DNA of 24,046 bases from a virus (taxonomy: Duplodnaviria; Heunggongvirae; Uroviricota; Caudoviricetes), in the IMG/VR virus record IMGVR_UViG_2617270979_000003, positions 1 to 24,046 of that record. One strand, 5' to 3'. The position numbers and the translations under genes are program-made. Every line of letters starts with the position of its first letter. Within the stretch, counting starts at the first letter, position 1. Of the stretch, positions 1,581 to 21,261 are shown piece after piece. The notes below the pieces were generated by a model. The model was given only the letters and a program-made list of their open reading frames with translations, did not search any database and had not been told where the DNA came from.

Positions 1581-3484
1581 TATGCAAGCCTCACAATATA
1601 GTTAAATGCGATGTTTTTGACGGTGTTTTCCGCGTTACCAGCAGCGTTAACGGTGATGGTGTGTCCATGTGAACCAATCGCAACGGAGTGCGTATGAGCA
1701 CCAATACCGACAGTATGCGCGTGTGCACCTGCAGATGCTGCTGTGCCGGACAGTGAATGGCTATGATTACCATCTGTACTGGTATTCGCTAACCACCCCG
1801 TAGACATACCTACTGAGCCTTGTACACCCCAGGTATTTTGACCTGAGCTTGTATAACCATATTGATAAGTATCTTTAAAAACACTGGGGTTAAATCGACG
1901 GCCATCTCTATGGCTGTGATTACCAGCTGCATTCGTGCTGCCACTTAAACTATGGGTATGCGCACCAGTGTTATTCGTGGATTTAGTGCCGTAATCAAAC
2001 GACGATGTGGTTTTCGTCCCCAAATCTGTACTGGATGCGCTGGCGCTGTGGGTATGCGATTTAATGCCGTCCTGTTCCTGAGACAATACGGCCCGACCAC
2101 TGGCAGGTTTGCCCTTAATCGTCCAGCCACGCATATCAGGGATCACGCCTGACGGATAAGCAGCTGCAAGTTTCGGGTAAGCAGATTTGTCAAAAGTCTG
2201 CCCCTGCATCAGGGCATAACCAGACGGAACGGTATCTGATGGCCACGGGATTGGTGCGCCGACTGGGTAGCTTTCTGGTGGAAGATTTTTCGAGGTATAA
2301 ACTTCTGCCCAGTCATCCTCAAAACCATAACCGTCTCTTGAAGAACGGTAGAACAGACCACCATTTCTGTAATGCGCCTTCATCTGCAAGGTCCGGCAAC
2401 TTCCGACTCCGGTATAGAAGTTAACCAGAATATAGCTGTCGCCAGAGCGGGTGACATTATAAGCGCCTGATTCGGCATTCCAGGGAACGCCACCATCCGC
2501 ATCGGCATATGTATCCGTTGCCCTTCTGGCAAAAGCAGCCACATGCGCGGCGGTTAAAGTAATATCTTTGGAACCATCAAACTCAACACCAGAAACCCGT
2601 CTTGGCGTTTGCAGCTTTGTTGCTGTTAATGCATTACCGTTCAGACTTGCGGACAGTTTGGTTCCAATAACCAGTTCGCCGGTTGCGTTATCAATAGCAA
2701 ACGGTCTTAATGTATTCCAGCCACCATAAACATCACCTTGATTGGTAAGCAGCAGGTAAGTTTTAGCGCCATCATTACGCCATAATGCCCCATACTCCCC
2801 ACCTATCATTCGAATCTGATTACCACCACGCGCTACAATTTCGTCTGTGGCAAAAAGTTTTTTGCACGACAAGTTATCGTTAACGATTAACGAATGAGAC
2901 TCATAAAAACCACGCCCACTCTTAAAATCAAGGATAACGTCCGCCGCGATACATTCAGTCGCTGGATTTGTTGCCCCAAACTTATAGGTCGTATCATTAA
3001 CAACGAGATCAGCACCAGGTGCGGATATTGACAGGCCATCTTCGATAAACGCAAAAACAGGGAAAGCAGCGCCATCAACATAGAACACAGAGCGCAAATC
3101 ATCGCCCTTATTACTCATCATTATTGAGTGGATGGCTCGTTCATTGTTTTGATATTGCCAGAACATTCCATAAGCATAACGCCCCCTGTCAGTCCAGCCA
3201 CCAGGCATAACAAATCCGTTAAACTCGCAGTTATTCATCGGATCGCCTGCGGTTCGCGTTGCCGTGGTGATAATGACCCTTGATGCCAGTTCGCTTACTG
3301 AGCCAGCAGAACGCATAACAACAACAGGGTAATATTTTCCAGATGTTGCACCTGCAGGAGCGTTAACCCGCACATAACGCATACCACGCTTATCAGCAAA
3401 GTCTGTTTTACTGACCGCGTTAATGTTGTTCAGGAAGCGTCCCTTATTCCAGTGCAACCTCAACACCATTAACCAGTTCACCAA
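1580..3484 (-). CDS. stfR: Side tail fibre protein, C-terminal receptor-binding portion with His-x-His repeats; N-terminal part probably missing or frameshifted
   Basis: 634-aa ORF; C-terminus has [77 protein letters not shown], as in T4 gp37 / lambdoid Stf C-termini. Much shorter than the roughly 1100-aa Rac StfR I recall, and upstream reading frames are disrupted. Confidence 0.75.
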
Positions 3485-3779
3485 CCCCTTTCCAGTCTTT
3501 CAGCAGATAACGAGCGGCATTATCAATGAGTAAATCATCAACAGAATCCACCTCGGAAACCTTTGAAATATCAAACTCCTTCGTTCCGACGTGCAAACTG
3601 GCATCCATTTTCTCAATGTGGCGACGGATTAATGCATTACGGGAGCGATACTGATCGTTATCGCTGCTTGCCACCTACAGTTTTAACCCGTCTACAGGTT
3701 TTAAGTCCTTCATTGGCGTAAACCAGCGTTCTCCACCAATGATAATTTTCTGATTAAGAATAAACATCCATAACCTCAT
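3444..3779 (-). pseudogene. Amber-interrupted ORF remnant upstream of the tail fibre gene (34 codons, in-frame TAG, 76 codons), overlapping the stf start in another frame
   Basis: Hand translation of the minus strand: ATG at 3779, in-frame TAG at 3677..3675, then GTG and 76 more codons to 3444. The 3' end overlaps the 5' end of the 634-aa stf ORF. Confidence 0.3.
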
Positions 3780-3969
3780 TCAATGCGTCCCCCTGTAGGG
3801 CAGTACCACAGGAGGAATAACGGAAAATCAACTAATCGCCTCAGCACTGGCTTTTGCGATCACGGCAGCCAGTGCTACTGGGGGCGGAGGTGTTGCTGGT
3901 AAAGTTAGGTATTGGATCAATGAGTGAGTCAACATAATATTAAACTCACAATTATAAATCAGCCATATA

Positions 3970-5427
3970 TTAGGAGCGCCAAAAAAAACCTGAAAACAAT
4001 ATAATAACAGGATAAATTTCAAGGCGACCAAGAATCATAGCTATGCACATTAAATATTTTGCAATGTCATTAAGCACTCCGAATGACGATGCAGTAGCCC
4101 CAAAACCTAATCCCATATTATTAATACATGCAGCCACTGTTGCAAATGATGTAAGAAAATCATATCCCATACCATTTAACACCAGTATAAAAAACACCGT
4201 GAAGAGAGTATAAAGAAAAAAGAAACTCCATACAGACCTCATTACACGATCTGTAACTATCTTCCCTCCTACATTTACACTCAACAACGCTCTGGGATGA
4301 GAAAGCTGATTTATCTCGTGTTTGCTTTGTTTGAAAAGTATAAGAAATCGAAGTGACTTAATTCCACCACAAGTTGAACCTATACATCCCCCAAAGAAAC
4401 TTGACAACAGCAAAAACACTATCGTGTGCGTGGGCCAACTTGCATAATCCTGCGTAGCTAAACCATTATCAGTGAGCATGGAGCTGGCAAGAAAAAACGA
4501 ATGAATAAAACTTCCATGCAAGTCATACATACCTATATGCCAGACCTGGAAAGAGGTAACAATGATCACCCCTAAGGCTATTAACAGAAAGAAACGAAGT
4601 TCAATATCTCTGATTAAAGGTTTTATCGTTTTCCTGCTAATAACAATATACCAAAGAGTGAAGTTGAAAGCCGATAGCAGGGAAAAAGAACCAGCCACCA
4701 GCTCAACCAAATAGTTATTAAAATATCCGATACTCTCGCTATGAGTTGAGAAACCACCAAGCGAAACTGTGGAAATCCCGTGACAAATAGCATGAAACAA
4801 AGGCATTCCTGCAAGTCTATAACAGACAATACAAGCAATACCTAATAAAGAATAAGTTATCCACAGTGTCCGTGACGTATCGGCCAGGCGGGGAGTGAGT
4901 TTGTCATCCTTAAATGGCCCCGGCATTTCTGACTGATAAAGCTTTGCACCACCAATACCCAATAATGGCAATACAGCAACCGCCAGAACAATAACTCCTA
5001 AACCACCTATAAAATTTAACTGTGACCGATAGTACAAATATGCCCGAGGTAATGAACTAACATCATCAATTACAGTTGCTCCTGTTGTTGTTATTCCAGA
5101 AACCCCTTCAAACAGAGCATCAATGAACGTTAAATTAAGTTCTGAGTCAATCCATAAAGGGAATGCACTAATAACAGAAAACAAAATCCAAAACATTACA
5201 ATTATAATAAACCCATCACGGGTACGTAATTGAATGCCAGATTTCTTAGTTGTATACCACGCTCCGCCACCAATGCAAAAAAATATAACGAAAGTTATAA
5301 AGAAAACAAACAGGCTTTTTTCTTTATAAAACAATGCTACAACCATTGGTGGCAACATTGAAAGACTATAGAGCCAAACTAGGAACCCACACATATGAGT
5401 AACAACTCTTACATGAGATGTATTCAT
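3970..5427 (-). CDS. trkG: Trk-system K+ uptake membrane protein TrkG
   Basis: Polytopic membrane protein; the ORF from its 7th codon (MNTSHVRVVTHMCGF...) gives 485 aa, the length I recall for TrkG; visibly A+T-rich compared with flanking phage genes; same position after Rz as in Rac. Confidence 0.85.
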   Translation of the reverse strand: MNTSHVRVVTHMCGFLVWLYSLSMLPPMVVALFYKEKSLFVFFITFVIFFCIGGGAWYTTKKSGIQLRTRDGFIIIVMFWILFSVISAFPLWIDSELNLTFIDALFEGVSGITTTGATVIDDVSSLPRAYLYYRSQLNFIGGLGVIVLAVAVLPLLGIGGAKLYQSEMPGPFKDDKLTPRLADTSRTLWITYSLLGIACIVCYRLAGMPLFHAICHGISTVSLGGFSTHSESIGYFNNYLVELVAGSFSLLSAFNFTLWYIVISRKTIKPLIRDIELRFFLLIALGVIIVTSFQVWHIGMYDLHGSFIHSFFLASSMLTDNGLATQDYASWPTHTIVFLLLSSFFGGCIGSTCGGIKSLRFLILFKQSKHEINQLSHPRALLSVNVGGKIVTDRVMRSVWSFFFLYTLFTVFFILVLNGMGYDFLTSFATVAACINNMGLGFGATASSFGVLNDIAKYLMCIAMILGRLEIYPVIILFSGFFWRS

Positions 5428-6523: not shown

Positions 6524-6738
6524 TATTCACCTCTCGCAGCCTTGCGCTTATCTTCTTTAATCTTGAAATAAAGGTTTGTCAGGTACGTCAGCAGGCCAAA
6601 TACCAGACTACCCAGCACACCGATTGCAGCCCACTGTGACGGAGTTACTCTATCGAGCAACTGTAAAAACCAGTAGCCAGCACTGCCTGCGGAGGTGCCG
6701 TAGGCAATGCCTGTTGAAATTTTGTCCATGGATTTCAT
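6523..6738 (-). CDS. Pinholin (S21-like) with dual-start motif MKSMDK
   Basis: 71-aa product from [26 protein letters not shown]... with two TM segments and a charged C-terminus; closely resembles phage 21 S as I recall it. The ORF-track Met lies further upstream and is unlikely to be used. Confidence 0.85.
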
Positions 6739-14939: not shown

Positions 14940-15362
14940 TTAATGAACAATGACAGAATCGTCGGAAGAACCGCCGCCGCTGAAATGCGCTTTCCGGTAA
15001 ACGGCTTGGACTGCATCATCATGCGCATCAATTGCCGTACTTAACGCTTCCTGCGCCGCCAGTAATGCACGGCGTTCCAGGGTATCGAAGATGCAGAGTC
15101 GGTGACGCAGCTCGCGCGGAAGGATTGCCAGAATTGCTGGGATCAGCTTCTGAATTTTTTCTCTTTGCGTTTTCGTTTCACCTTTCAACCAACGGTGATA
15201 GATATTCTGCTGATTGTTCCAGTCCTTGCCTGGAACCAGGGGCAATTCGCCGCCCCCCTGGCGCAGATATTCTTCAGTAATTGCATTGGCTACCCATGCC
15301 TGCCCTTTTTCGGCTGCTAGGGCAAACAACACTGATTCGATGTGCTCATGCTTGATTTTCAT
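14940..15362 (-). CDS. ydaT: YdaT (Rac immunity-region protein, toxic partner of YdaS)
   Basis: 140-aa ORF directly downstream of ydaS; length and N-terminus match my recollection of Rac YdaT. Confidence 0.85.
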   Translation of the reverse strand: MKIKHEHIESVLFALAAEKGQAWVANAITEEYLRQGGGELPLVPGKDWNNQQNIYHRWLKGETKTQREKIQKLIPAILAILPRELRHRLCIFDTLERRALLAAQEALSTAIDAHDDAVQAVYRKAHFSGGGSSDDSVIVH

Positions 15363-15384
15363 GAATCATTTGCCTCTTGATGTT

Positions 15385-15681
15385 TCAGGTATGATCAAAT
15401 GAGGATTTGTTACTGTCATTTAGTTGCTTCACTGACATATTCTGCGAACAACATGCCGAACGTCGTAAATATGACCAGTCAATATCAGGACGAAGTTCTT
15501 CGCACAGAACCTCACCTCTTGTTGCACGTTCAATTGCTGGACATCTCTCGGCAGGCAATTGACGTACCCCTTTGATCCATTGATTTACGCTTGGAGGTGA
15601 TACACCTAAAAGCCTAGCCATTGCTGATTGCCCACCGACAACAGCACAAGCTTGCTTGAATGAATAGTTCTCTTTTTTCAT
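15385..15681 (-). CDS. ydaS: YdaS (Cro-like HTH protein)
   Basis: 98-aa ORF divergent from racR, beginning MKKENYSFKQACAVVGGQSAMARLLGVSPPSVNQWIKG (HTH); GGAG 8 nt upstream of the ATG. Confidence 0.85.
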   Translation of the reverse strand: MKKENYSFKQACAVVGGQSAMARLLGVSPPSVNQWIKGVRQLPAERCPAIERATRGEVLCEELRPDIDWSYLRRSACCSQNMSVKQLNDSNKSSFDHT

Positions 15682-15708
15682 CGAATGAACTCCAAAAACA
15701 CACAGAAA

Positions 15709-15753
15709 ATATTAGGCGACGCCTAACGCAATTGTCAATAGGCTGTGCCTAAT
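15709..15753 (-). promoter_or_regulatory. ydaS promoter (-35 TTGACA, -10 TAATAT) overlapped by operator palindromes TTAGGCG-A-CGCCTAA and TAGGC-TGT-GCCTA
   Basis: Minus strand: TTGACA (15738..15733), 18-bp spacer, TAATAT (15714..15709); perfect 7-bp-arm palindrome at 15712..15726 within spacer/-10; second palindrome at 15737..15749 overlapping the -35. Confidence 0.5.
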
Positions 15754-15805
15754 GCAGTAAGGGTAGGGATTGACTAATGTAATGCGCATAGGAGAATATT
15801 AAGCA

Positions 15806-16282
15806 ATGCTTAGTGGTAAAAACTTAGGCCGAGCGATAGAGCAGGCCATTAACAAAAAAATCGCATCGGGATCCGTCAAATCAAAGGCGGAGGTCGCACG
15901 CCACTTTAAAGTCCAACCACCATCAATTTATGACTGGATTAAGAAAGGCTCTATAAGTAAAGATAAACTTCCAGAATTATGGCGTTTCTTTTCTGATGTT
16001 GTTGGTCCAGAGCATTGGGGGCTTAACGAATACCCCATACCAACCCCCACCAATTCAGATACAAAAAGTGAACTTTTAGATATAAACAACCTTTATCAAG
16101 CAGCCTCTGATGAAATAAGAGCGATTGTAGCTTTCCTGTTATCTGGAAATGCTACAGAACCAGATTGGGTTGACCACGATGTTCGCGCCTACATAGCAGC
16201 GATGGAAATGAAAGTGGGTAAGTATCTGAAAGCTCTTGAATCTGAACGGAAAAGCCAGAACATCACAAAAACTGGAACTTAA
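15806..16282 (+). CDS. racR: RacR prophage repressor
   Basis: 158-aa ORF divergent from ydaS, with an HTH-like N-terminal region; length and context match Rac RacR. Confidence 0.85.
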   Translation: MLSGKNLGRAIEQAINKKIASGSVKSKAEVARHFKVQPPSIYDWIKKGSISKDKLPELWRFFSDVVGPEHWGLNEYPIPTPTNSDTKSELLDINNLYQAASDEIRAIVAFLLSGNATEPDWVDHDVRAYIAAMEMKVGKYLKALESERKSQNITKTGT

Positions 16283-16377
16283 ACTTATATGGTCTGACGG
16301 AAAACTCCTGGATTCCGTTATTTAACCCCCCCATCACTTTCTGCTGTCGCCATCACCTATTAGGTTACGCTCAAAAC

Positions 16378-16421
16378 ATTAGGCATAGCCTATTGACAAC
16401 CAATTAGGCATTACCTATAGT
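16378..16421 (+). promoter_or_regulatory. pL-like rightward promoter (-35 TTGACA, 17-bp spacer, -10 TATAGT) overlapped by operator palindromes; inverted copy of the ydaS promoter/operator element
   Basis: ATTAGGCATAGCCTATTGACAAC (16378..16400) is 21/23 identical to the reverse complement of 15731..15753; -35 at 16393..16398, -10 at 16416..16421; TAGGC-ATA-GCCTA palindrome at 16380..16392. Confidence 0.5.
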
Positions 16422-16590
16422 TCCAGCATGCCACCCACCCCGCCCCACAGAACGCCGGGCAATACTTCGAGTTACCAGGCAGTGGTAAGGGGTTAAGTAG
16501 CCAGCCCGAGGCGTATGAACATGACGGCGGGATTCAAATTTTGCAGTGCAGCAGTTAGTTCCGCCACCCGGCGTTAATGGGAGAGATAAG

Positions 16591-16725
16591 ATGGTGCATT
16601 ACGAAGTAGTTCAGTATTTGATGGATTGTTGCGGTATCACTTACAACCAGGCTGTGCAGGCTTTACGCAGCAACGACTGGGATCTCTGGCAGGCAGAAGT
16701 CGCTATACGTAGCAACAAGATGTGA
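16591..16725 (+). CDS. ydaG: Small protein YdaG-like (44 aa)
   Basis: Hand translation MVHYEVVQYLMDCCGITYNQAVQALRSNDWDLWQAEVAIRSNKM; GGGAGAG upstream; Rac has 44- and 51-aa genes between racR and sieB; symbol assignment from memory. Confidence 0.5.
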   Translation: MVHYEVVQYLMDCCGITYNQAVQALRSNDWDLWQAEVAIRSNKM

Positions 16726-16735
16726 GATTCGCAAA

Positions 16736-16891
16736 ATGCAAAAAATCGACCTCGGCAACAACGAATCCCTGGTGTGCGGCGTGTTCCCCAACCAGGATGG
16801 AACGTTCACTGCCATGACGTATACCAAAAGCAAAACATTTAAAACCGAAACTGGTGCGCGCCGATGGTTGGAGAAGCACACAGTAAGCTAA
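16736..16891 (+). CDS. ydaF: Small protein YdaF-like (51 aa)
   Basis: Hand translation MQKIDLGNNESLVCGVFPNQDGTFTAMTYTKSKTFKTETGARRWLEKHTVS; stop overlaps the convergent sieB stop. Confidence 0.5.
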   Translation: MQKIDLGNNESLVCGVFPNQDGTFTAMTYTKSKTFKTETGARRWLEKHTVS

Positions 16892-17376
16892 CGATTAAAA
16901 CGTCTACTCCTGCTGTTCCAGAATAACTTCATAAAATGGGAGTATTTTTCGGTGACGAGATAATAAGAACAGTTTGCGCTATCACTCTGATGTTGAATGA
17001 TGCCCTTCCGTTCTAATTTTTTCATAACCGGGTTACGGCAAGGAGAAGTGATAATAAGATTTCCTGTTTTAAGGAAATCTTTAAATACAGCGATTTCTTT
17101 CTCAGATAAACGAAGCAATACTCGTTGCTCTGGTAGTAATGAATAATGCTTTTGAATATGTGCTCGCAATCTTGAGAAGGAAATGGCGACCACGAAAGAA
17201 AAGGCAAAAACGATAATCTGAAAGAGCCAAGGTATTTCAGTATAAGCATTGAATGCGACAGTAAACTCTTTCGGTATCAGCCAGAGAGTGAGACCAAAAA
17301 TGATAATCGTATACATAAGTCTTTCGAGTGGCTCGTTAGCAAAAAGTTTCAACAATGGAGTAAATACATCCAACAT
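16888..17376 (-). CDS. sieB: Superinfection exclusion protein SieB
   Basis: From the internal Met (MLDVFTPLLKLF...) the product is 162 aa with two hydrophobic segments, matching Rac SieB length; the upstream extension in the ORF track is unlikely to be translated. Confidence 0.8.
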   Translation of the reverse strand: MLDVFTPLLKLFANEPLERLMYTIIIFGLTLWLIPKEFTVAFNAYTEIPWLFQIIVFAFSFVVAISFSRLRAHIQKHYSLLPEQRVLLRLSEKEIAVFKDFLKTGNLIITSPCRNPVMKKLERKGIIQHQSDSANCSYYLVTEKYSHFMKLFWNSRSRRFNR

Positions 17377-17594
17377 ATCAATAACTCTCAACTGTAAGGG
17401 TATTGAAATGTTAACACAAGCTCTCGCTGTAGGGGTATAGCCGAGACCACCGAAGCCCGGAGGTGGTGAAATAAAACCGGGCACAACACGAAGGCGCATT
17501 TCCGATATCCATAAAGAGTCGGTCTTGTCTGTTAAATTTAAATGGTGGGAGTGCGCCTCCGGTTGTAAATAACGACATTGCTGTGTGTAGTCCT

Positions 17595-17642
17595 GGCGGC
17601 ATCAGTTTTTTTCTTGAAGTTCGGCTGATGTCCGCCCTTTTT
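17595..17642 (+). terminator. Candidate plus-strand terminator-like hairpin upstream of kilR
   Basis: GGCGGCATCAG ... CTGATG(T)CCGCC: 11 bp with a 1-nt bulge and a 19-nt loop, followed by CTTTTTAAAG. Confidence 0.3.
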
Positions 17643-17817
17643 AAAGTGAATTTTGTGATGCGGTGAATGCGGCTAAGCGCACGTGGCACAGTTAAAAGTC
17701 ATGTTAGTCCTTATTGGTTTGGGTGGGAAAGCCGACTGTAATTGTTAACTGGTTGCAGTCACCTGGAGGCACCAGACACCGCATCAACAAAGTTCATTTG
17801 TAAAAATGGAGATAATT

Positions 17818-18039
17818 ATGATTGCACATCACTTCGGAACTGATGAAATACCACGTCAGTGTGTGACTCCTGGCGATTATGTTCTTCATGAAGGCCGGAC
17901 ATATATTGCCTCGGCAAACAATATTAAAAAGCGAAAACTATATATTCGTAACCTGACCACAAAAACATTCATTACTGACCGCATGATTAAAGTCTTCCTC
18001 GGTCGTGATGGTTTACCTGTAAAGGCGGAGTCATGGTGA
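17818..18039 (+). CDS. kilR: KilR, FtsZ-inhibiting killing protein
   Basis: 73-aa product [73 protein letters not shown] matches Rac KilR as I recall it. Confidence 0.85.
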
Positions 18040-18209
18040 TGACTAAGAAAATAAAATGTGCTTACCACCTTTGCAAAAAAGACGTTGAAGAAAGCAAAGC
18101 TATTGAAAGAATGCTTCACTTCATGCACGGGATTTTATCAAAAGACGAACCGAGAAAATATTGCAGTGAAGCTTGTACCGAAAAAGACCAGATGGCACAT
18201 GAACTTTAA
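18039..18209 (+). CDS. ydaE: YdaE-like small Cys-rich protein (56 aa)
   Basis: Hand translation [56 protein letters not shown]; start overlaps the kilR stop (TGATG). Confidence 0.7.
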   Translation: MTKKIKCAYHLCKKDVEESKAIERMLHFMHGILSKDEPRKYCSEACTEKDQMAHEL

Positions 18210-18283
18210 TTAATTGACTATTCGAAACTGAATTTATGCCAGAAATGGCAGGTATTCGCTCAACCTTAATTAAGGAGAAAAAC

Positions 18284-18559
18284 ATGATTACCAATTATGA
18301 AGCCACTGTTGTAACTACCGATGACATTGTTCACGAGGTGAATCTGGAAGGAAAGCGCATTGGCTACGTAATTAAAACAGAAAATAAAGAAACCCCATTC
18401 ACTGTGGTTGATATCGATGGTCCATCAGGCAACGTAAAAACACTTGATGAAGGTGTCAAAAAAATGTGCCTGGTGCATATCGGAAAGAATCTGCCCGCAG
18501 AAAAAAAAGCCGAATTTCTGGCAACTCTAATTGCAATGAAATTAAAAGGTGAAATCTGA
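18284..18559 (+). CDS. racC: RacC
   Basis: 91-aa product from MITNYEATVV... with AAGGAG upstream; position between ydaE and recE. Confidence 0.75.
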   Translation: MITNYEATVVTTDDIVHEVNLEGKRIGYVIKTENKETPFTVVDIDGPSGNVKTLDEGVKKMCLVHIGKNLPAEKKAEFLATLIAMKLKGEI

Positions 18560-18564
18560 AAGAA

Positions 18565-18589
18565 ATAGCCTGCGTATGGCGCAGGCTAT
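18565..18589. other. Perfect 10-bp stem hairpin (ATAGCCTGCG-TATGG-CGCAGGCTAT) between racC and recE
   Basis: Read directly; no U-tract on the plus strand. Confidence 0.6.
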
Positions 18590-18660
18590 GAACAGTGTGT
18601 ATCCGGCAAGATCATTCACTGAACAAAACGAATTTTAATCTGAGTTGAGGTTAAAAAACA

Positions 18661-21261
18661 ATGAGCACAAAACCACTCTTCCTGTTACGGAAAGCGAAAA
18701 AATCATCCGGTGAACCTGACGTCGTCCTGTGGGCAAGCAACGATTTTGAATCGACCTGTGCCACTCTGGACTACCTGATCGTTAAGTCAGGTAAAAAACT
18801 GAGCAGCTATTTTAAAGCTGTTGCCACGAATTTTCCTGTCGTTAATGACCTGCCCGCTGAAGGTGAGATCGATTTTACCTGGAGTGAACGCTATCAACTC
18901 AGCAAAGACTCCATGACATGGGAACTAAAACCGGGAGCAGCACCAGACAACGCTCACTATCAAGGCAATACCAACGTCAACGGCGAAGACATGACTGAGA
19001 TTGAGGAGAATATGCTACTCCCAATTTCTGGCCAGGAACTGCCCATTCGTTGGCTTGCTCAACACGGCAGCGAAAAACCGGTAACGCACGTTTCACGCGA
19101 CGGACTCCAGGCATTACACATTGCTCGGGCTGAAGAACTACCGGCTGTTACTGCCCTGGCTGTTTCCCACAAAACCAGCCTGCTCGACCCGCTGGAAATT
19201 CGCGAACTCCACAAACTGGTTCGTGACACTGACAAAGTTTTCCCTAATCCTGGTAATTCAAACCTGGGACTGATAACTGCTTTTTTCGAAGCATACCTGA
19301 ACGCTGACTACACCGATCGAGGACTGCTGACAAAAGAGTGGGTGAAGGGTAATCGTGTTTCACACATCACTCGCACGGCTTCCGGTGCTAATGCTGGCGG
19401 CGGAAACCTCACCGATCGCGGCGAAGGTTTCGTACACGATCTGACGTCACTGGCGCGCGACGTAGCCACTGGCGTACTGGCCCGTTCAATGGATCTGGAC
19501 ATCTATAACCTTCATCCGGCACACGCTAAACGCATTGAGGAAATTATCGCTGAAAATAAACCGCCCTTTTCTGTTTTCCGCGACAAATTCATCACCATGC
19601 CTGGCGGGCTGGATTATTCCCGCGCCATCGTGGTTGCGTCCGTAAAAGAAGCACCAATTGGGATCGAGGTCATCCCCGCGCACGTCACTGAATATCTGAA
19701 CAAAGTACTGACTGAAACCGATCATGCCAACCCTGATCCGGAAATCGTGGATATTGCCTGCGGTCGCTCCTCTGCCCCGATGCCGCAGCGAGTAACAGAA
19801 GAAGGAAAACAGGATGATGAAGAAAAACCGCAACCATCTGGAACAACGGCATTTGAACAGGGAGAGGCTGAAACAATGGAACCGGACGCAACTGAACATC
19901 ATCAGGACACGCAGCCGCTGGATGCTCAGTCACAGGTAAATTCTGTTGATGCGAAATATCAGGAACTGCGGGCAGAACTCCATGAAGCCCGGAAAAACAT
20001 TCCATCAAAAAATCCTGTCGATGCCGATAAATTGCTTGCTGCATCACGTGGTGAATTTGTTGACGGAATTAGCGACCCGAACGATCCGAAATGGGTAAAG
20101 GGGATCCAGACTCGCGATTGTGTGTACCAGAACCAGCCAGAAACGGAAAAAACCAGCCCGGATATGAATCAACCTGAGCCAGTAGTGCAACAGGAACCGG
20201 AAATAGCCTGCAATGCCTGCGGCCAGACTGGCGGGGATAACTGCCCTGACTGTGGTGCGGTGATGGGCGACGCAACATACCAGGAAACATTCGATGAAGA
20301 GAGTCAGGTTGAAGCTAAGGAAAATGATCCGGAGGAAATGGAAGGCGCTGAACATCCGCACAATGAGAATGCTGGCAGCGATCCGCATCGCGATTGCAGT
20401 GATGAAACTGGCGAAGTCGCAGATCCCGTAATCGTAGAAGACATAGAGCCAGGTATTTATTACGGAATTTCGAATGAGAATTACCACGCGGGTCCCGGTG
20501 TCAGTAAGTCTCAGCTCGATGACATTGCTGATACTCCGGCACTGTATTTGTGGCGTAAAAATGCCCCCGTGGACACCACAAAGACAAAAACGCTCGATTT
20601 AGGAACCGCTTTCCACTGCCGGGTACTTGAGCCGGAAGAATTCAGTAACCGCTTTATCGTAGCACCTGAATTTAACCGCCGGACAAACTCCGGAAAAGAA
20701 GAAGAGAAAGCGTTTCTGAGGGAATGCGCAAGCACAGGAAAAACGGTTATCACTGCCGAAGAAGGCCGGAAAATTGAACTCATGTATCAGAGCGTTATGG
20801 CTTTGCCGCTGGGGCAATGGCTTGTTGAAAGCGCCGGACACGCTGAATCATCAATTTACTGGGAAGATCCTGAAACAGCAATTTTGTGTCGGTGCCGTCC
20901 GGACAAAATTATCCCTGAATTTCACTGGATCATGGACGTGAAAACTACGGCGGATATTCAACGATTCAAAACCGCTTATTACGACTACCGCTATCACGTT
21001 CAGGATGCATTCTACAGTGACGGTTATGAAGCACAGTTTGGAGTGCAGCCAACTTTCGTTTTTCTGGTTGCCAGCACAACTATTGAATGCGGACGTTATC
21101 CGGTTGAAATTTTCATGATGGGCGAAGAAGCAAAACTGGCAGGTCAGCTGGAATATCACCGCAATCTGCGAACCCTGGCTGACTGCCTCAATACCGATGA
21201 ATGGCCAGCTATTAAGACGTTATCACTGCCCCGCTGGGCTAAGGAATATGCAAATGACTAA
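18661..21261 (+). CDS. recE: Exodeoxyribonuclease VIII (RecE)
   Basis: 866-aa ORF with an acidic, low-complexity middle region and a C-terminal nuclease domain; overlaps the recT start; length matches RecE. Confidence 0.9.

Follow-up and report, generated by a model that had tools for sequence, protein, structure and literature searches.

Rac is a much-studied cryptic prophage from which RecET recombineering, KilR and RalR derive; its repressor gene racR is essential in Escherichia coli K-12. In current papers RacR acts only at the racR-ydaS intergenic region, as one member of a 'toxin-repressor' pair, and the locus examined here raises the question of whether the same repressor also works on the other side of its gene, at a promoter facing the early-left genes. 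The stretch analysed (the window) comprises 24,046 nt of IMG/VR record IMGVR_UViG_2617270979_000003; it contains the Rac prophage, reversed relative to the K-12 map, and among 5,426 complete E. coli genomes the best match to positions 15380-16600 is found in K-12 strains, at 99.5% identity. On sequence evidence, racR is proposed here to lie between two outward-facing copies of one promoter/operator cassette, the right copy of which (16380-16421) would be the Rac analogue of PL/OL in phage lambda; the probability of this reading is put at about 0.8.

DNA of the racR-ydaS intergenic region is shifted by RacR, which represses PydaS (PMC5700373). PydaS (TTGACA/TAATAT) has been mapped in K-12 by primer extension and -10 mutagenesis, the leaderless racR promoter (-10 GAGAAT) was likewise mapped via primer extension and mutagenesis, and DNase I footprints define the RacR operators as (T/A)TAGGC-n3-GCCTA(T/A), including one across the racR ATG; protection is seen over the PydaS promoter region at the lowest RacR concentration (PMC9638921). 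YdaS reportedly competes with RacR for operators in this intergenic region and represses its own expression. The left cassette is this mapped and footprinted promoter, which bears out the placing of ydaS-ydaT under RacR in a preliminary description of the same DNA. Published RacR studies have examined only 123-271 bp around the racR start and never mention the racR-ydaG intergenic region; ydaG itself is named in this literature only within lists of induced genes. The literal operator sequences do not occur in the full-text literature searched and, as the preliminary description supposed, the distal site is undescribed in the papers examined on RacR, YdaT, KilR, Rho, OxyS, Gifsy, Qin, CP-933P and CRISPR interference (CRISPRi), although an older description is possible.

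The 23-mer ATTAGGCATAGCCTATTGACAAC at 16378-16400 agrees at 21 of 23 positions with the reverse complement (ATTAGGCACAGCCTATTGACAAT) of 15731-15753, an inverted pair that had been picked out in the preliminary description and is recovered by direct comparison and by pattern search. No equivalent pair arises in 100 shuffles of the window, and in a repeat search the match lengthens to 34 nt at 82%. The 24-kb window has three exact copies of TAGGC-N3-GCCTA (at 15713, 15739 and 16380), all flanking racR, against an expectation of 0.01. Allowing up to two mismatches adds 15764, 15800 and 16405, and six of the eight window sites then fall within 15713-16417, in clusters at 15713-15812 and 16380-16417. 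The distal sites share the published operator consensus, positions 16379-16393 (TTAGGCATAGCCTAT) being a perfect core and 16404-16418 (TTAGGCATTACCTAT) having one core mismatch, and the left arm of the inverted repeat is itself one of the published operators.

Promoter and pattern scans also find the perfect -35 TTGACA and the palindrome ascribed earlier to each copy, and the suggested -10 elements reappear as TTGACA-17-TATAGT in the rightward promoter (11/12) and TTGACA-18-TAATAT in PydaS (10/12). The two cassettes mirror each other: in each, one operator abuts the -35 (OR-b on the left, OL-1 on the right; Table 1) and a second, 25-26 bp off, covers the first two bases of the -10 (OR-a and OL-2), and operators on both sides of racR overlap the -35/-10 regions of outward-facing, divergent early promoters. 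The additional palindrome noted in the ydaS promoter is present as TTAGGCGACGCCTAA (15712-15726), a member of the TTAGGC-N3-GCCTAA family. The TTAGG half-sites reported to the right of racR fared unevenly: those at 16403..16415 are in fact a full second operator, TAGGCATTACCTA, while that at 16360 belongs to a 3-mismatch site (16361-16373) that differs between alleles within Escherichia and is missing from other genera. Two weaker left sites, at 15764-15776 and, overlapping the racR ATG, at 15800-15812, had been missed. The rightward promoter is the sole consensus-like promoter on the + strand in 16400-19500, and no intrinsic terminator was found on that strand within the same interval.

Table 1. 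Genes and regulatory features around racR, in window positions.
Feature	Position	Strand	Remarks
ydaT	14940-15362	-	gene list and K-12 annotation
ydaS	15385-15681	-	gene list and K-12 annotation
PydaS (PR analogue)	15709-15738	-	-35 TTGACA 15738-15733, 18-nt spacer, -10 TAATAT 15714-15709; drives ydaS-ydaT leftward
Operator OR-a, TAGGCGACGCCTA	15713-15725		exact; overlaps spacer and first two PydaS -10 bases; centre -87 from racR ATG
Operator OR-b, TAGGCTGTGCCTA	15739-15751		exact; abuts PydaS -35; centre -61; inside left arm of 23-bp inverted repeat
Operator OR-c, TAGGGATTGACTA	15764-15776		2 mismatches; contains -35 of leaderless racR promoter
racR promoter (published PracR3)	15770-15797	+	-35 TTGACT (TTGCCT in K-12), -10 GAGAAT 15792-15797; leaderless racR mRNA
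Operator OR-d, TAAGCAATGCTTA	15800-15812		2 mismatches; N3 overlaps racR ATG; published as O3
racR	15806-16282	+	158-aa repressor; conserved N-terminal helix-turn-helix domain (residues 1-73), variable C-terminal domain
Distal operator OL-1, TAGGCATAGCCTA	16380-16392		exact; abuts rightward promoter -35
Rightward promoter (PL analogue), predicted	16393-16421	+	-35 TTGACA 16393-16398, 17-nt spacer, -10 TATAGT 16416-16421
Distal operator OL-2, TAGGCATTACCTA	16405-16417		1 mismatch; 25 bp from OL-1; overlaps first two -10 bases
Untranslated leader of predicted early-left transcript	16427-16590	+	~165 nt; conserved in lambdoid phages with unrelated repressors
ydaG	16591-16725	+	first gene past rightward promoter; K-12 annotation
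ydaF	16736-16891	+	second gene past rightward promoter; K-12 annotation
sieB	between ydaF and kilR in gene list	-	K-12 annotation
kilR	17818-18039	+	followed by ydaE, racC and recET on the same strand

In the proposed mechanism, each cassette would consist of a RacR operator (TTAGGC-N3-GCCTA), the TTGACA -35, a short spacer and a second operator ending in the first two bases of the -10, with the known PydaS promoter and its operators standing as the PR/OR analogue and the right copy as that of PL/OL. RacR, and probably also the Cro-like YdaS, would bind the right copy, and a fall in the RacR level would let both promoters fire. Because the conserved leader begins just past the -10, the predicted start of rightward transcription is placed there, at about 16426-16430. 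On the left side, OR-d is a candidate autorepression site.

Comparison across genera supports this proposal. Twenty-three diverse RacR homologues were aligned, with the N-terminal 73 residues near-invariant and the C-terminus variable. Used to scan one genome per species, the alignment retrieved 30 loci with a gene for a RacR-type N-terminal domain, in genera that range from Escherichia, Mixta, Morganella, Proteus, Erwinia and Klebsiella to Achromobacter, Bordetella, Burkholderia, Comamonas, Herbaspirillum and Nitrosomonas. With the window and Klebsiella phage KpF5 added and duplicate Escherichia copies removed, these gave 28 non-redundant loci spanning Enterobacterales to Burkholderiales. Exactly one pair of sites 24-26 bp apart lies downstream of the repressor gene in 21 of the 28, against no pairs in 50 dinucleotide shuffles of all loci. 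In all 21, GCCTA is directly followed by a -35 hexamer, which is TTGACA at 16 loci and departs from it by one base at the other five, site 2 overlaps the -10 (mostly TAATAT) and the promoter is directed away from the repressor gene, giving a shared order of operator, TTGACA, 6 nt, and operator overlapping TAATAT. The pair is found anywhere from 68 bp to 5.2 kb past the repressor stop codon, with unrelated cargo genes in the interval. The upstream operator layout (-60, -35 and 0 relative to the ATG) also recurs among the 28 loci, and the OR-d equivalent at the ATG is TAGGCAATGCTTA in most related loci.

KpF5 provides the clearest example. Its RacR homologue is ~68% identical in DNA, operators stand at -60, -35 and 0 from the ATG, and ACATTAGGCTAAGCCTATTGACATATCATTAGGCAAAACCTAATAT, with the same architecture as Rac 16376-16421, follows ~1.4 kb downstream, separated from the repressor gene by an HSDR_N-like cargo gene and a strong intrinsic terminator. 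The terminator (4661-4682) lies just before the cassette, and the genes beyond it therefore need a promoter of their own. Furthermore, the variant half-site AAGGC turns up at OR and OL together, genome by genome (rho 0.91), which supports the action of one protein on both sides. As a separate observation, the non-contacted N3 spacers are identical between PR-side and PL-side operators in several loci (KpF5, which is L001, as well as L097, L100 and L112), for example GTC at three L100 sites and TAA at two KpF5 sites, a match that may reflect gene conversion or concerted evolution linking the two cassettes.

Within Escherichia the comparison rests on ~40 distinct alleles; a scan of viral contigs gave near-identical Escherichia copies almost exclusively and was unsuited to deep comparison. 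The half-site columns of OL and OR are 0-20% variable, with very low entropy, whereas flanking intergenic columns are 38-46% variable, the rest of the racR-OL spacer is 38% variable and the N3 positions vary freely. No variation is seen in the OR-a half-sites among 40 alleles, in which each of the three N3 positions varies, or in those of OL-1 among 42, a pattern that supports purifying selection acting on the operator half-sites. Taken with the pair kept in 21 loci and the co-variation of AAGGC, this constraint strengthens the suggestion made in the preliminary description that the operators flank racR in the manner of lambda OR and OL.

Published expression data point the same way. The genes ydaG, ydaF, kilR, ydaE and racC rise 40-70-fold upon RacR perturbation (PMC6765115, PMC11014345), and published RNA-seq in which the early-left genes are derepressed upon racR silencing is in keeping with the early-left transcript previously suggested on this side. 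CRISPRi (Cascade) roadblocks at racR +3, +58 and +208 lower racR RNA 11-20-fold and, although placed inside racR, induce ydaG, kilR, ydaE, racC, recE, recT, ralR, xisR and intR (bioRxiv 10.64898/2026.09.06.749655). Since the early-left genes rise with racR blocked inside its coding sequence, read-through from the racR promoter is not their source and a separate promoter is needed. The viability of a sieB-to-ydaU deletion, in which racR and the cassette are gone and kilR is kept, also counts for the PL/OL analogue.

Several points weigh against it. Seven of the 28 loci show no downstream pair within the locus sequence examined. At Rac itself, OL-2 has a mismatched core half-site (ACCTA), and no conserved third OL operator was found at up to three mismatches within 45 bp either side of the pair in 20 loci, so that Rac OL has two conserved sites only, where lambda, P22, Qin and CP-933P have three. 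No binding, start-site or reporter data for the distal copy appear in the literature searched, older papers possibly excepted. Genomic SELEX (systematic evolution of ligands by exponential enrichment) of RpoD holoenzyme sites flagged only the trkG promoter in Rac; this weighs little because the validated PydaS was missed as well. Looping between OL and OR, considered below, is consistent with the published octamer but speculative. The smallest viable racR deletion (racR, ydaS and the intergenic region) retains the distal promoter and kilR, and it follows that PL-driven KilR would have to be sublethal or curtailed by downstream termination. Finally, published models have kilR silenced by Rho/NusG termination of transcripts that come from upstream of racR.

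These models underlie the alternative that survives best, improbable as it appears: that the distal copy contains no working repressible promoter, that the early-left genes are reached by Rho/NusG-limited read-through from racR, and that their induction is indirect, via YdaS/YdaT, excision or replication. The Sen laboratory has described a Rho-dependent terminator within racR ('trac') that shields cells from kil expression (PMC4150792), and the OxyS/NusG literature concurs on a Rho/NusG brake on kil; the viable racR-ydaS deletion, which keeps the distal element, fits as well. Nor is there an intrinsic terminator between racR and ydaG, including the interval from racR to the rightward promoter (16283-16379), so read-through from the racR promoters can enter the early-left genes as a second, independent route. 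The roadblocks within racR nevertheless reduce racR RNA and raise the downstream genes on the same strand, the opposite of what read-through predicts, the cassette and its promoter hexamers are kept across orders whatever their distance from the repressor gene, and in KpF5 an intrinsic terminator stands just upstream of the cassette. The lack of a comparable terminator between racR and PL in Rac, unlike KpF5, is an observation that fits Rho/NusG keeping racR transcripts off kilR in K-12.

Slightly less probable again is that the distal sites truly bind protein but serve mainly as architecture, whether as the anchor of a RacR loop that tunes PydaS and racR autoregulation or as targets of YdaS, and not as an off-switch for the early-left genes. 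The main effect of the OL-OR loop in lambda is to sharpen repression of PR and autoregulation at PRM, which speaks for such a role, as do the octamers formed by RacR and the sharing of the racR-ydaS operators by a competing, autorepressing YdaS, in the way Cro shares the operators of CI. However, the sites are always interlocked with a near-consensus -35/-10 aimed at the early-left genes, which a pure anchor does not need, and those genes are derepressed along with ydaS-ydaT. The two roles are in any case compatible, and this alternative differs from the PL/OL analogue in emphasis only. That the similarity is a relic of duplication or recombination, or that the palindromes are small terminator hairpins with no regulatory role, is scarcely credible and effectively refuted: the terminator scan does flag both perfect palindromes as a weak - strand hairpin and T-run (two found against 1.8 expected, thus background), but the stems are of 5 bp only, the half-sites and not the T-run are conserved while the N3 loop is free, and the pair is kept in 21 diverged loci with none in shuffles.

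The 5' end of the leader downstream of the proposed PL, a few bases past the -10, is C-rich (CCACCCACCCCGCCCCACAGAAC), and the leader is 84-87% identical in Evi, in Tritos (DicF/DicB), in Actinobacillus pPE4 and in prophages with LexA-family repressors, although their repressors and operators are unrelated; in all nine loci inspected it sits between the repressor gene and the first early-left open reading frame (ORF). When a 1.2-kb query was run by megablast, 3,703 of the 5,426 complete E. coli genomes gave a match, only 1,086 of them over at least 80% of the query, and matches confined to the leader made up most of the E. coli genome matches. No Rfam match was obtained at E ≤ 1 in 15300-17600, and no support was obtained for a structured RNA in the leader (minimum free energy z-score -1.2; one covarying pair in an alignment of eight homologues, with an unfavourable covariation term). 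By these measures, conservation of the leader is at the level of sequence, and it could be a Rho-loading or attenuation region. An 18-codon ORF, MTAGFKFCSAAVSSATRR, lies inside the leader at 16521-16577 with GAGG upstream; its ATGACGGC start is kept in homologous leaders, but past the start the peptide diverges, in length as well (20 codons in Evi, six in the Actinobacillus phage), and it may be a leader peptide or coincidental.

The arrangement follows the lambda paradigm, as might be expected, and is apparently unwritten for Rac; it is not a new kind of system. As in the lambda immunity region, operator clusters flank the repressor gene on both sides and overlap early promoters that face outward; operator centres are 24-26 bp apart; and the repressor, octameric in solution, is made from a leaderless mRNA whose promoter and start carry an operator. 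Both also have a variable cargo slot between repressor and OL, occupied by rexAB in lambda and by HSDR_N-like, ankyrin and LprI genes in RacR-type relatives. The Rac operator, however, is 13-15 bp (TTAGGC-N3-GCCTAA) against 17 bp in lambda; OL has two sites instead of three, and OR four in Rac or three in RacR-type relatives; the C-terminal domain of RacR is not of the S24 autocleavage type; OL and OR are ~640 bp apart against ~2.3 kb; and no N-like antiterminator is evident in Rac. The cargo slot, running from the repressor stop to the OL pair, was seen in KpF5 (3306-4703) and in L095, L097, L100, L102, L103, L105, L107, L109 and L112, and contains HSDR_N nuclease-like, ankyrin-repeat, LprI lysozyme-inhibitor-like and 5'-nucleotidase genes and several without a Pfam match; as it corresponds to the position of rexAB, the cargo may be defence or fitness genes expressed in the lysogen.

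The PaaR2/YdaS/YdaT system of CP-933P (Jurenas et al., mBio 2021, PMC8630535) resembles Rac in having a repressor, a divergent ydaS-ydaT pair and, past the repressor operon, a further promoter with its own repressor operators, as well as an octameric repressor and a leaderless mRNA. There, the -35 and -10 of PL933P are identical to those of PR and repression of PL was shown by reporter, whereas the Rac counterpart is known here from sequence. The CP-933P repressor family and operator (GTTTAGTAA repeats) are unrelated, OL1-3 comprises three operators, and a toxin-antitoxin pair is included within the repressor operon. In Qin, where an analogous PL/OL element has also been tested, a short repressor not cleaved in the SOS response, DicA, controls a divergent cro-like gene from dicCp, and an early-left operon that encodes a cell-division inhibitor is transcribed from the PL-like dicBp; neither the repressor nor the operators are those of Rac, with three operators reported per promoter (PMC10448788). 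The Rac leader is homologous to the leader past the PL-like promoter in Tritos (dicF/dicB) and in E. coli prophages of the dicB-operon type, K-12 Qin being outside this comparison.

RacR itself has no Peptidase_S24 match, in contrast to betaproteobacterial proteins with the RacR N-terminal domain, in which S24 is matched at E-values of 1e-13 to 1e-24. Prophages of Betaproteobacteria, and some of Pectobacterium, carry such fusions together with an unchanged operator layout; identity is 51-74% over the aligned N-terminal 77-102 residues for loci L093, L095, L102, L104, L105 and L112, and N-terminal identity is 70-81% for proteins P0100, P0104, P0113 and P0115. The betaproteobacterial fusion loci amount to a classical cI-type repressor with an OR and OL layout. 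As RacR lacks S24 and its relatives have it, RacR is regarded as a relative of the cI type with a swapped C-terminal domain, outside the SOS-cleavable class.

RacR is an octamer by size-exclusion chromatography, and the authors of that work assign it to 'four inverted repeats' upstream of racR (PMC11014345), not to a bridge between OL and OR. More tentatively than the rest of the mechanism, the octamer would instead join a pair of dimers at OL to a pair at OR, closing a ~640-bp loop in the manner of lambda CI. A broader proposal, doubtful as a whole and well short of the confidence placed in the PL/OL analogue, would take the octamer off the four upstream repeats and onto this loop around racR, make 'operator-TTGACA-operator-TAATAT' an ancient portable module of phages of Gamma- and Betaproteobacteria, in which SOS-cleavable S24 and non-cleavable oligomerisation domains have been swapped at the C-terminus, and treat the C-rich leader as a Rho/NusG-sensitive gate to kilR and recET.

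If true, a second operator and promoter would supply a direct mechanism for the joint derepression of ydaG, kilR, racC, recET, ralR, xis and int on loss of RacR, a concrete target for revisiting classical sbcA-type activation of recET and an alternative role for the octamer in OL-OR looping. It would also separate two routes to KilR, derepression of PL and Rho-sensitive read-through. Nothing here is conceptually new, the lambda paradigm being extended to another repressor family, but conservation across the family provides a ready operator model for annotating prophage immunity regions in Enterobacterales and Burkholderiales.

Some minor features concern the window more narrowly. Six private differences separate it from K-12 in the 1.2 kb compared (15706, 15773, 15821, 16400, 16430 and 16578), and with the C/T difference at 16400 the K-12 inverted pair agrees at 22 of 23 positions. 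OR-c is TAGGGATTGCCTA in K-12 and the other compared Escherichia alleles. The change at 15773, C>A, converts the right half of this third left operator from GCCTA to GACTA and the racR -35 from TTGCCT to TTGACT; it is found in no other allele among the ~40 from Escherichia, and racR transcription is predicted to be stronger and less autorepressed as a result. Far from racR, a 1-mismatch site, TAGGCAATGCCTG, lies at 6701-6713 with neither a partner nor promoter context; it was rejected as an operator, a single isolated site fitting chance.

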